From Escherichia coli (lineage in GTDB: Bacteria > Pseudomonadota > Gammaproteobacteria > Enterobacterales > Enterobacteriaceae), in NCBI RefSeq assembly GCF_036507355.1, contig NZ_AP027877.1: a stretch of DNA of 64,000 bases, one strand, 5' to 3'. A program made the position numbers and the translations under genes. A model generated the notes under the pieces. That model saw only the letters and a list, made by a program, of their open reading frames with translations. It was not told the DNA's origin and searched no databases. Of this stretch, positions 20,693 to 57,319 are shown one piece after another. The stretch's first letter is position 1, and every line of letters begins with the position of its first letter.

Positions 20693-21604
20693 ATGCTGTG
20701 GTTCAAAAATTTAATGGTTTACCGTCTTAGCCGCGAGATTTCGCTGCGTGCAGAAGAGATGGAAAAACAGCTAGCCTCGATGGCATTTACCCCATGCGGC
20801 AGCCAGGACATGGCGAAGATGGGCTGGGTTCCTCCGATGGGATCGCACAGCGATGCGTTAACGCACGTTGCCAATGGTCAAATTGTTATCTGCGCGCGCA
20901 AAGAAGAAAAAATCCTACCGTCTCCGGTGATTAAACAGGCGCTGGAAGCGAAAATCGCCAAACTGGAAGCGGAACAGGCGCGTAAGCTGAAGAAAACCGA
21001 AAAAGATTCGCTGAAAGACGAAGTGCTGCACTCTCTGTTGCCGCGTGCTTTCAGCCGTTTTAGCCAGACAATGATGTGGATCGACACGGTTAACGGTTTG
21101 ATTATGGTGGACTGCGCCAGTGCCAAAAAAGCGGAAGATACGCTGGCACTGCTGCGTAAAAGCCTGGGGTCGTTACCGGTTGTACCATTGAGCATGGAAA
21201 ACCCGATTGAACTGACGCTGACCGAATGGGTACGTTCCGGTAGTGCGGCACAGGGCTTCCAGTTGCTTGATGAAGCCGAGCTGAAATCGCTGCTGGAAGA
21301 TGGCGGCGTGATCCGCGCGAAGAAACAAGATCTGACCAGCGAAGAGATCACCAATCACATCGAAGCCGGAAAAGTGGTGACTAAACTGGCGCTCGACTGG
21401 CAGCAGCGCATTCAGTTTGTGATGTGCGACGATGGTTCGCTCAAGCGTCTGAAGTTCTGCGACGAGCTGCGCGATCAAAACGAAGATATCGACCGTGAAG
21501 ATTTCGCCCAGCGTTTTGATGCCGATTTCATCCTGATGACTGGTGAACTGGCAGCGTTAATTCAAAACCTGATTGAAGGATTAGGTGGCGAAGCACAACG
21601 TTAA
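20693..21604 (+). CDS. rdgC: recombination-associated protein RdgC (start taken at [12 protein letters not shown])
   Basis: 303-aa product recognised as RdgC; divergent from mak. Confidence 0.93.
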
Positions 21605-53756: not shown

Positions 53757-54814
53757 TGGAGCGCACTATGAGTCAGAAAAATTTTGTTGAACTGCGCAAC
53801 GTCACTAAACGATTCGGCAGTAATACGGTTATCGACAATATCAATCTCACCATTCCACAAGGGCAAATGGTGACGCTGCTCGGTCCTTCCGGCTGTGGCA
53901 AAACCACCATTTTGCGTCTGGTTGCCGGGCTGGAAAAACCGAGCGAAGGGCAAATTTTTATTGATGGCGAAGATGTCACGCATCGTTCCATTCAACAGCG
54001 CGATATCTGCATGGTGTTTCAGTCATACGCTCTGTTCCCGCATATGTCGCTGGGTGAAAACGTTGGCTACGGGCTGAAGATGCTTGGCGTGTCGCGTAGC
54101 GAAGTGAAACAGCGGGTGAAGGAGGCGCTGGCAATGGTGGATCTGGAAGGCTTCGAGGACCGCTATGTCGATCAGATTTCCGGTGGTCAGCAACAGCGTG
54201 TGGCACTGGCCCGCGCGTTGATCCTCAAGCCAAAGGTGCTGCTGTTTGATGAGCCGTTAAGTAACCTCGATGCCAACCTGCGCCGCAGTATGCGCGATAA
54301 GATCCGCGAGCTGCAAAAGCAGTTTAATATCACGTCGCTCTACGTCACTCACGATCAAAGTGAAGCTTTCGCGGTGTCCGACACTGTGCTGGTGATGAAT
54401 AAAGGTCACATCATGCAGATTGGCTCACCGCAGGATCTCTATCGTCAGCCAGCCTCCCGATTTATGGCAAGTTTTATGGGCGACGCCAACCTGTTCCCGG
54501 CGAACTTTAGCGAAGAGTATGTCGATATCTACGGTTATCGCCTGCCGCGCGCGGCGCATTTCCCGGCGCAAGGTAGCGGCACCGTCGGCGTTCGCCCGGA
54601 AGCCATCACCTTAAGCAATCACGGCGAAGAGAGTCAGCGTTGTGTTATTCGCCATGTCGCCTACATGGGGCCGCAGTACGAAGTGACCGTAGAGTGGCAT
54701 GGACAGGAGATTTTATTACAAGTAAACGCCACCCGTTTACAGCCCGATATTGGTGAGCACTATTACCTCGAAATCCATCCTTACGGGATGTTTGTTTTAG
54801 CGGATGCGGCATAA
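53756..54814 (+). CDS. afuC: ABC transporter ATP-binding protein (AfuC/FbpC/PotA type)
   Basis: Walker [10 protein letters not shown], signature [15 protein letters not shown], Walker [12 protein letters not shown]; start overlaps afuB stop (TAATG). Confidence 0.8.
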
Positions 54815-54896
54815 AAATAGCACATAAACGGTCCCCATCTGTCTTGAGGGACCGTTCACCTGGTTAGGCTTCGGACAACAATTATTCTCCAGTGTT

Positions 54897-54949
54897 ATAT
54901 ACTATAGGGGGGTATGCATTGACATATAGCATACCCCCCTATAGTATAT
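54897..54949. promoter_or_regulatory. FrmR operator: perfect 21-bp inverted repeat ATATACTATAGGGGGGTATGC / GCATACCCCCCTATAGTATAT around an 11-bp spacer
   Basis: Arms at 54897-54917 and 54929-54949 are exact reverse complements, centred ~50 bp upstream of frmR. Confidence 0.8.
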
Positions 54950-54973
54950 TGCGTGCAGATGATGAGGTGCGAA

Positions 54974-55249
54974 ATGCCCAGTACTCCGGAAGAGAAGAAA
55001 AAGGTCCTTACTCGAGTTCGTCGTATTCGGGGGCAGATTGATGCTCTGGAACGGTCGCTGGAGGGTGATGCCGAATGCCGTGCCGTACTCCAACAGATCG
55101 CTGCCGTTCGGGGCGCGGCTAATGGGCTGATGGCAGAAGTGCTTGAAAGCCATATCCGGGAAACGTTTGACCGAAATGACTGCTACAGCCGCGAAGTCAG
55201 CCAATCCGTTGACGACACTATTGAACTGGTTCGTGCCTATCTTAAATAG
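54974..55249 (+). CDS. frmR: formaldehyde-responsive transcriptional repressor FrmR (start taken at [10 protein letters not shown])
   Basis: 91-aa CsoR/RcnR-family product, recognised. Confidence 0.93.
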
Positions 55250-55253
55250 CTGA

Positions 55254-56393
<1,140 letters not shown>

Positions 56394-56485: not shown

Positions 56486-57319
56486 ATGGAACTCATTGAA
56501 AAACATGCCAGCTTTGGCGGCTGGCAAAATGTGTATCGGCATTATTCCCAATCATTGAAATGTGAAATGAATGTCGGCGTCTATCTCCCGCCAAAGGCCG
56601 CAGGTGAAAAATTACCGGTGCTGTACTGGCTTTCGGGCCTGACCTGCAATGAGCAGAATTTCATTACTAAATCGGGGATGCAGCGTTACGCGGCTGAGCA
56701 CAACATTATTGTTGTTGCGCCGGACACCAGTCCGCGAGGCAGTCATGTCGCAAATGCCGACCGTTACGATCTCGGGCAAGGTGCCGGGTTTTACCTGAAC
56801 GCAACGCAAGCGCCGTGGAATGAACATTACAAAATGTATGACTATATCCGCAACGAGCTGCCGGATTTAGTGATGCATCATTTTCCGGCAACGGCCAAAA
56901 AGTCTATCTCTGGTCATTCTATGGGCGGGCTGGGCGCGCTGGTGCTGGCGTTACGTAACCCAGATGAATATGTCAGCGTCTCGGCGTTTTCGCCCATTGT
57001 CTCCCCATCGCAAGTGCCGTGGGGACAGCAAGCCTTTGCTGCATATCTTGGTGAAAATAAAGATGCCTGGTTGGATTACGACCCGGTGAGTCTTATTTCA
57101 CAAGGTCAACGCGTTGCGGAAATCATGGTTGATCAGGGGTTGAGTGATGATTTTTACGCAGAACAGCTGCGGACTCCAAATCTTGAAAAGATCTGCCAGG
57201 AGATGAATATCAAGACGTTAATCCGTTATCACGAGGGTTACGACCACAGCTATTATTTTGTCTCCAGTTTTATTGGCGAGCATATTGCCTACCACGCCAA
57301 TAAACTGAATATGCGTTGA
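56486..57319 (+). CDS. frmB: S-formylglutathione hydrolase
   Basis: 277-aa esterase ORF with GHSMGG nucleophile motif. Confidence 0.95.
   Translation: MELIEKHASFGGWQNVYRHYSQSLKCEMNVGVYLPPKAAGEKLPVLYWLSGLTCNEQNFITKSGMQRYAAEHNIIVVAPDTSPRGSHVANADRYDLGQGAGFYLNATQAPWNEHYKMYDYIRNELPDLVMHHFPATAKKSISGHSMGGLGALVLALRNPDEYVSVSAFSPIVSPSQVPWGQQAFAAYLGENKDAWLDYDPVSLISQGQRVAEIMVDQGLSDDFYAEQLRTPNLEKICQEMNIKTLIRYHEGYDHSYYFVSSFIGEHIAYHANKLNMR

Follow-up and report, generated by a model that had tools for sequence, protein, structure and literature searches.

In the 64,000-nt stretch of Escherichia coli DNA analyzed here (the window), a long and perfect inverted repeat lies just before frmR, which encodes a formaldehyde-responsive repressor of the CsoR/RcnR family. 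Why should this element be so extended and so regular, and what does it do? The answer is an ordinary one: the repeat is the already published FrmR operator of the E. coli frmRAB operon, and its great length is explained by two tetramer sites that bracket the -35 hexamer of the promoter. The element, the protein, the chemistry of its effector, and the use of the system in formaldehyde biosensors have all been published; the promoter, Pfrm, was reportedly also the subject of a Sort-Seq study by Rohlhill et al. in 2017. What comparative genomics contributes is a view of the parts: a 17-bp promoter site, ATAC-N9-GTAT, is the conserved unit, and its mirrored second copy is specific to certain lineages.

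The inverted repeat and its neighborhood

Read directly, positions 54897-54949 are ATATACTATAGGGGGGTATGC-ATTGACATATA-GCATACCCCCCTATAGTATAT. A repeat finder returned two arms of 21 nt (54897-54917 and 54929-54949) that are 100% complementary and are separated by the 11-nt spacer ATTGACATATA; the left arm is ATATACTATAGGGGGGTATGC, the right arm is its exact reverse complement, and each carries an uninterrupted tract, G6 on the left and C6 on the right (Table 1). A sequence-only reading of this DNA had described just such exact 21-nt arms with an N11 spacer and G6/C6 tracts, and had placed them directly upstream of frmR; the sequence and the repeat finder bear out the former, and the distance of 24 nt to the frmR ATG agrees with the latter.

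The same reading called the repeat unusually long and perfect. An arm search of the 64-kb window allowing up to three mismatches found just the two known copies, and arm matches in 100 dinucleotide-preserving shuffles numbered zero. Inverted repeats of at least 14 nt within 60 nt occur three times in the whole window, and the one at 54897-54949 is the longest of them and the sole perfect one. A back-of-envelope calculation (64,000 positions x ~60 spacings x 4^-21) puts the chance expectation of a 21-nt repeat at ~1e-6, and folding of the repeat as single-stranded DNA gives -21.5 kcal/mol (z = -7.3 relative to shuffles). The repeat is real, has the coordinates given here, and is far beyond chance; the description as long and perfect stands for this window, with the qualification that the perfection is specific to the allele (see below). 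The remaining two inverted repeats, at 6404-6451 and 20883-20908, are imperfect (20-nt arms at 85%; an 18-nt GC-rich palindrome at 83%).

On the combined evidence of HMM scores and sensing residues, the gene downstream of the repeat is assigned to the FrmR subgroup of the DUF156 repressors. Its predicted product scores 188.4 bits with the NCBIfam equivalog NF008464 (cut-off 133), also matches PF02583, and reaches only 69 with the RcnR HMM, for which the cut-off is 138. It is identical to K-12 FrmR at 90 of 91 positions, the sole difference being I38V, and matches PDB entry 5lbm (E = 6e-55); the sensing residues can be read in the protein as MPSTP...AEC35...ESH60. As listed mechanically, the open reading frame starts with a GTG at 54953 and encodes 98 aa; the annotation starts instead at the ATG at 54974, which is preceded by GAGGTG at 54964-54969. 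We favor the ATG because it provides the N-terminal Met-Pro for the Pro2-Cys35 cross-link and matches the 91-aa protein that was crystallized.

The repeat sits in a gap of 159 nt between the stop codon of fbpC (54814) and the frmR ATG (54974). We compared a 481-nt query across this region with 5426 complete E. coli genomes, 5415 of which match at at least 95% identity. The full query, in which fbpC adjoins frmR, is matched by 450 of the 5426; in K-12 the neighbor is yaiO. In the other E. coli genomes homology starts at query position 103, corresponding to position 54882 of the window and 15 nt to the left of the repeat, and because it starts there also in genomes that lack the fbpABC island, the repeat is part of the conserved frm promoter module and not of the island.

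An accessory island of the fbpABC ABC-transporter type ends ~15 nt from the frm operator (54815-54881, with the junction at ~54882). Within this segment, 13 nt past the fbpC stop, is a hairpin (54827-54856) whose 9-bp stem, AACGGTCCC / GGGACCGTT, is perfect and whose loop is 12 nt long. No T-run follows on the plus strand, the minus-strand version is followed by T-rich sequence, and the terminator scan made no call; the hairpin may be a terminator carried by the island. An apparent plasmid copy of the frm locus is a linear record of 42.9 kb with chromosomal neighbors (yaiO and others), and is probably an unplaced chromosomal fragment rather than a mobile operon.

Table 1. Features of the frm region, with positions in the window
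Feature	Position	Strand	Basis
15-nt flank TTATTCTCCAGTGTT, shared with K-12; left edge of the conserved frm promoter module	54882..54896	+	homology boundary, alignments
Whole inverted repeat; FrmR operator region overlapping the frmRAB core promoter	54897..54949	.	repeat finder, arm search, whole-window scan
Distal FrmR site 1, ATAC-TATAGGGGG-GTAT, type 1; G6 tract 54907-54912; abuts the -35 hexamer on its upstream side	54899..54915	.	pattern search
Predicted -35 hexamer TTGACA (6/6), inside the 11-nt repeat spacer	54919..54924	+	promoter scan, consensus match
Proximal FrmR site 2, ATAC-CCCCCTATA-GTAT; C6 tract 54934-54939; fills the promoter spacer and the -10 hexamer	54931..54947	.	pattern search
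Predicted -10 hexamer TAGTAT, 17-nt spacing, made by the 3' end of site 2	54942..54947	+	promoter scan, consensus match
frmR, formaldehyde-responsive CsoR/RcnR-family repressor, 91 aa; Pro2, Cys35 and His60 present	54974..55249	+	HMM and homology
frmA, S-(hydroxymethyl)glutathione dehydrogenase	55284..56393	+	TIGR02818, 742 bits
frmB, S-formylglutathione hydrolase	56486..57319	+	TIGR02821, 396 bits

Two sites around one promoter

The definition of a type 1 operator site, including an uninterrupted G/C tract of 3-8 bp at its core, is taken from Denby et al. 2016 (PMC5146963), and both tracts of the repeat (G6 and C6) are of this kind. The AT-rich inverted repeats that flank such a tract take the form ATAC-N9-GTAT in the case of FrmR, and two exact matches, sites 1 and 2, are present, the only two in the 64-kb window. 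This 8-base pattern is not rare by itself, since at least two matches occurred in 16 of 100 shuffles, and its significance therefore comes from position and conservation, not from the pattern alone. The two sites are oriented as mirror images with their starts 32 bp apart, and a gap of 3 nt separates the end of site 1 from the -35 hexamer. The combination TTGACA-17-TAGTAT is the only sigma-70-like match in 54600-55400 (score 10/12), so that the predicted hexamers put the sites over the core promoter of their cognate repressor's own operon, 24 nt upstream of frmR; the sites also occur together with the regulator gene in other genomes (64 of 79 frmR upstream regions). The transcription start is a predicted one, a mapped start for the frmRAB promoter being seemingly absent from the accessible literature. 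The start predicted by Denby et al. puts the center of the repeat at -29, in agreement with the position of the predicted -10 hexamer (PMC5146963).

The repeat is accordingly two CsoR/RcnR type 1 sites of 17 bp, mirrored, each built around a G6/C6 tract; the functional unit is this 17-bp site, present twice, and not one 21-bp half-palindrome. The proposal of the sequence-only reading, an FrmR operator bound in the manner of CsoR and RcnR, is supported in its choice of regulator and family of binding, and needs revision in its geometry, with two 17-bp sites taking the place of one long 21-bp operator.

Experimental evidence for this operator comes from several published studies. Denby et al. 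2016 (Sci Rep 6:38879, PMC5146963, Fig. 6a) drew the E. coli repeat as tandem sites and named it the FrmR binding region. Using BLItz and in vitro transcription on the K-12 Pfrm fragment, they reported a Kd of ~220 nM for E. coli FrmR on Pfrm as against 3600 nM on a control fragment, and repression in vitro that formaldehyde reverses (PMC5146963). A study from 2024 made the promoter J23100 repressible by FrmR through insertion of ATACN9GTAT upstream of the -35 hexamer and into the spacer (PMC11127321). In the same work, a truncated PfrmR that kept both FrmR sites and lacked the upstream DNA lost repression (PMC11127321), indicating that the two sites may not be sufficient alone. The loss also hints at a contribution from flanking DNA, as in the DNA wrapping proposed for RcnR. 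The accessible literature yielded no footprint, DNase-type or otherwise at nucleotide resolution, for E. coli FrmR on this DNA.

We are highly confident that the frmRAB promoter is autoregulated, its -35 and -10 hexamers being occluded by FrmR tetramers bound to sites 1 and 2, and that formaldehyde, by cross-linking Pro2 to Cys35 and remodeling the DNA-binding face, releases the repressor. When formaldehyde is absent, disc-shaped FrmR tetramers, most likely one at each site, would keep RNA polymerase off both hexamers. Formaldehyde would join Pro2 of one subunit to Cys35 of another, the remodeled protein would leave the DNA, and frmR, frmA, and frmB would then be transcribed. In this scheme, FrmR binding to Pfrm, repression in vitro, and release by formaldehyde come from the literature, while the present analysis supplies the anatomy and significance of the repeat, its overlap with a consensus promoter, the identities of the genes, and the conservation of the sites with frmR. 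What we infer is that each site takes up one tetramer and that repression works by steric occlusion; the former is a model because the E. coli binding data were obtained with a whole promoter fragment. Denby et al. likewise presented a model with two tetramers, and speculated that a single tetramer might use both of its faces (PMC5146963).

Conservation with frmR and alleles within E. coli

Scanning one genome per species gave 80 frmR loci from gamma-, beta-, and alphaproteobacteria, with 79 distinct upstream regions; a frmA homologue lies directly downstream of frmR in 76 of the 80. Strict ATAC-N9-GTAT is found no more than 150 nt upstream of frmR in 64 of the 79 distinct loci, as one site in 46 and as two in 18, against a background of three matches in the remaining 241,778 bp of these loci. 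The 15 loci that lack the strict motif have near variants, for example with N8 spacing or with GTAC. The consensus of the promoter-proximal site is ATACTCCCCTATAGTAT (from the 64 loci), and in the Brucella/Ochrobactrum group this site directly abuts TTGACA, as TTGACATACTCCCCCATAGTATATAG. The distal second site (18 of 79 loci) is found mostly in the Enterobacterales and is usually mirrored; from start to start, the distance between the two sites is 32 bp in Escherichia and 33-35 bp in Edwardsiella, Providencia, Pantoea, Serratia, and Aeromonas. Across all two-site loci the spacing varies (23 and 32-35 bp), and in Erwinia the two sites are direct copies. This comparison shows the 17-bp promoter site to be the conserved unit, the 53-bp palindrome being composed of two such sites, of which the mirrored second one was added in particular lineages.

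Several loci depart from the common arrangement. Klebsiella grimontii, Maribrevibacterium harenarium, and a Citrobacter freundii MAG carry near-identical frmR-like genes and upstream regions. The features noted here lie at ~1340-1500 and 2441-3271 in these loci. The encoded proteins are 90% identical to E. coli FrmR, no frmA follows, and the left site has diverged to ATACTACACGGGAGGTAT, with N10; such near identity in unrelated genera suggests a mobile copy. In the K. grimontii locus, an open frame ~660 bp after the frmR-like gene is presumably, judged by eye, an iron-containing alcohol dehydrogenase. In six Lysobacteraceae loci the element, ATACTCCCCCCCACTATG, lies within the last ~20 nt upstream of frmR, extends into the inferred ATG, and lacks the 3' GTAT, which would imply either a leaderless or very short-leader transcript or a start codon that has been set wrongly.

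Within E. coli, the exact 53-mer is present in 3554 of the 5135 matching records (69%), and the K-12-type allele, in which GAATAC replaces GCATAC in the right arm, is found exactly in 1033 of them. Some 550 records have other variants at one to three positions, C5 and C7 tracts among them. The repeat is single-copy in each E. coli genome (median one place). An alignment of nine Escherichia sequences shows no change in TTGACA or in the ATAC/GTAT flanks of either site. By contrast, the inner GC of either arm (54916-54917 / 54929-54930) varies to GT, GG, AT, or GA, and the C tract is C5, C6, or C7 long; strain 06-00048 has two bases of the left N9 changed (GG to CA), and in E. albertii one C of the right tract is replaced by T. 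The differences in C-tract length could be homopolymer errors of sequencing or assembly. From this pattern, the 21-nt perfection is the majority allele of E. coli and is not in itself under constraint.

The K-12 laboratory reference is thus an imperfect variant of the majority perfect allele, a point of relevance for the engineering of sensors based on Pfrm. The K-12-lineage strain gw25 has GAATAC in the right arm together with C6, and K-12 DHB4 has GAATAC plus C5. The two sites are 32 bp apart here, start to start, as compared with the 31 bp between centers stated by Denby et al.; the C5 of DHB4 would give 31, and the difference may stem from the way of counting, from true polymorphism, or from a sequencing error in the homopolymer.

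Alternative readings and comparison with known operators

The alternative closest to the one-tetramer-per-site model retains the operator and changes its geometry: one tetramer acting through both faces, or two stacked tetramers, would bridge the sites and loop out the -35 hexamer. Denby et al. themselves raised this arrangement, and the site centers are ~31 bp apart as compared with 19 bp at rcnR-rcnA (PMC5146963). It would fit with the Salmonella probe that takes up two tetramers although it has a single shared C6 tract (PMC4528141), with the recurrence of the mirror orientation at 32-35 bp spacing in the Enterobacterales, and with the failure of the truncated two-site promoter to be repressed, which is a hint of higher-order DNA contacts (PMC11127321). 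We nevertheless regard bridging as unlikely. A loop of 32 bp would be very tight, the spacing is not constant (23 as well as 32-35 bp), the sites of Erwinia are direct repeats, and most loci outside the Enterobacterales have just the proximal site; because 46 of the 79 frmR loci have only one site, one site suffices in those lineages. A more specific form of the idea, to which we likewise give little credence, is that the mirrored, near-perfect duplication is kept because repression needs a higher-order complex in which tightly looped or wrapped DNA traps the -35 hexamer; natural alleles (C5/C6/C7, inner GC-to-GA) would then alter affinity or helical phasing, so that strains would differ in their formaldehyde set-point.

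Readings that do without FrmR fare much worse. It is very improbable that the palindrome acts through DNA structure, as a cruciform or a single-stranded hairpin, and not through protein binding. The perfect 21-bp arms and the stable single-stranded fold (-21.5 kcal/mol, z = -7.3) are what such a structure would have, but ~31% of E. coli records have imperfect arms, and other genera keep the ATAC-N9-GTAT cores without complementarity of the arms, as direct repeats in Erwinia and as single sites in most lineages. Protein binding, moreover, accounts for everything and has no need of the 11-nt loop or the AT-rich ends. Concerted evolution of the arms, which would be a signature of a structural palindrome, was considered and set aside: the identity of the N9 segments is 6.08/9 within loci and 5.40/9 between loci, a co-variation too weak to support the claim. 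Still more remote is the idea that the repeat is a transcription terminator or RNA element of the upstream fbpC. It lies downstream of that gene on the same strand, and its RNA would form a strong stem; yet the terminator scan made no call, TATATTGCGTGC follows in place of a T-run, the loop is 11 nt long, and the ends of the stem are AT-rich, unlike the G+C-rich stem, short loop, and T-run of an intrinsic terminator. The repeat is also conserved in K-12, where the upstream gene is yaiO and not fbpC, a separate hairpin (54827-54856) stands directly after fbpC, and the only Rfam hits, to miRNA hairpins, are noise below threshold (26.8 bits, where the gathering score is 90). Scarcely credible, too, is the idea that a mobile element left the repeat behind, as its terminal inverted repeats or as a recombination site bordering the fbpABC island, or that another regulator such as RcnR binds there. 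The repeat does lie 15 nt from the junction with an accessory island that only 450 of 5426 genomes have, but it is present in genomes without that island, has no dispersed copies of the kind expected for a mobile element or MITE (one in the window, a median of one per genome), and travels with frmR across phyla. RcnR sites also have G6 tracts (PMC5146963), but the RcnR consensus TACTGGGGGGNAGTA matches neither arm even when three mismatches are allowed, and TACT-G6-N-AGTA is absent at the repeat with up to three mismatches.

With an FrmR operator of two type 1 sites as the preferred reading, the nearest known system is the K-12 Pfrm operator of Denby et al. Locus and element are the same there: tandem type 1 sites, with ATAC/GTAT repeats around G/C-rich tracts, form a large inverted repeat upstream of frmRAB that is centered at about -29. 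The two differ in that the allele of the window is a perfect 21-nt repeat with fbpC as its neighbor, whereas K-12 has GAATAC and yaiO.

The RcnR operator at rcnR-rcnA is another related system. As it is summarized in PMC5146963 from Iwig & Chivers 2009, its type 1 sites are arranged in tandem, each with a G6 tract between AT-rich inverted repeats, and one tetramer of this DUF156-family repressor binds at each site in its own promoter region. The RcnR motif is TACT-G6-N-AGTA, with centers 19 bp apart and Ni/Co as the effector, whereas the frm sites have ATAC...GTAT flanks at N9 and respond to formaldehyde.

The frmRAPro promoter of Salmonella Typhimurium resembles the E. coli operator in its C6 tract and its T/A-rich flanking inverted repeats, and there, too, two tetramers are bound and the flank is required (PMC4528141, PMC5016687). 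Osman et al. 2015 found that the frmRAPro probe binds two FrmR tetramers at ~100 nM (PMC4528141); Osman et al. 2016 found that binding to the Salmonella probe is lost when one flanking repeat is mutated. Their Fig. 2D, an alignment of the two species' promoters that highlights G/C tracts and T/A-rich repeats, already presents the E. coli repeat as the FrmR operator (PMC5016687). The two FrmR proteins are only 52% identical and have been described as polyphyletic (PMC5016687). The Salmonella probe, TTCTGATAGTATACCCCCCTATAGTATATGGAG, shares the exact 19-mer ATACCCCCCTATAGTATAT with both E. coli arms; the 17-mer of site 2 is identical to one in this FrmR-binding oligonucleotide, and site 1 shares the 19-mer through its reverse complement. 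The arrangement is nonetheless different. In Salmonella a single C6 tract serves both 17-bp sites, which overlap there to form one compact palindrome, ATAGTATA-C6-TATAGTAT, whereas in E. coli the sites are separate, 32 bp apart, with the -35 hexamer between them. Tatumella (five loci) and Biostraticola (one locus) also have a compact palindrome, ATACTATA-(C-rich 6)-TATAGTAT, with two 17-bp sites overlapping on one tract, so that these genera and Salmonella share the compact single palindrome, in contrast to the split two-site architecture of Escherichia.
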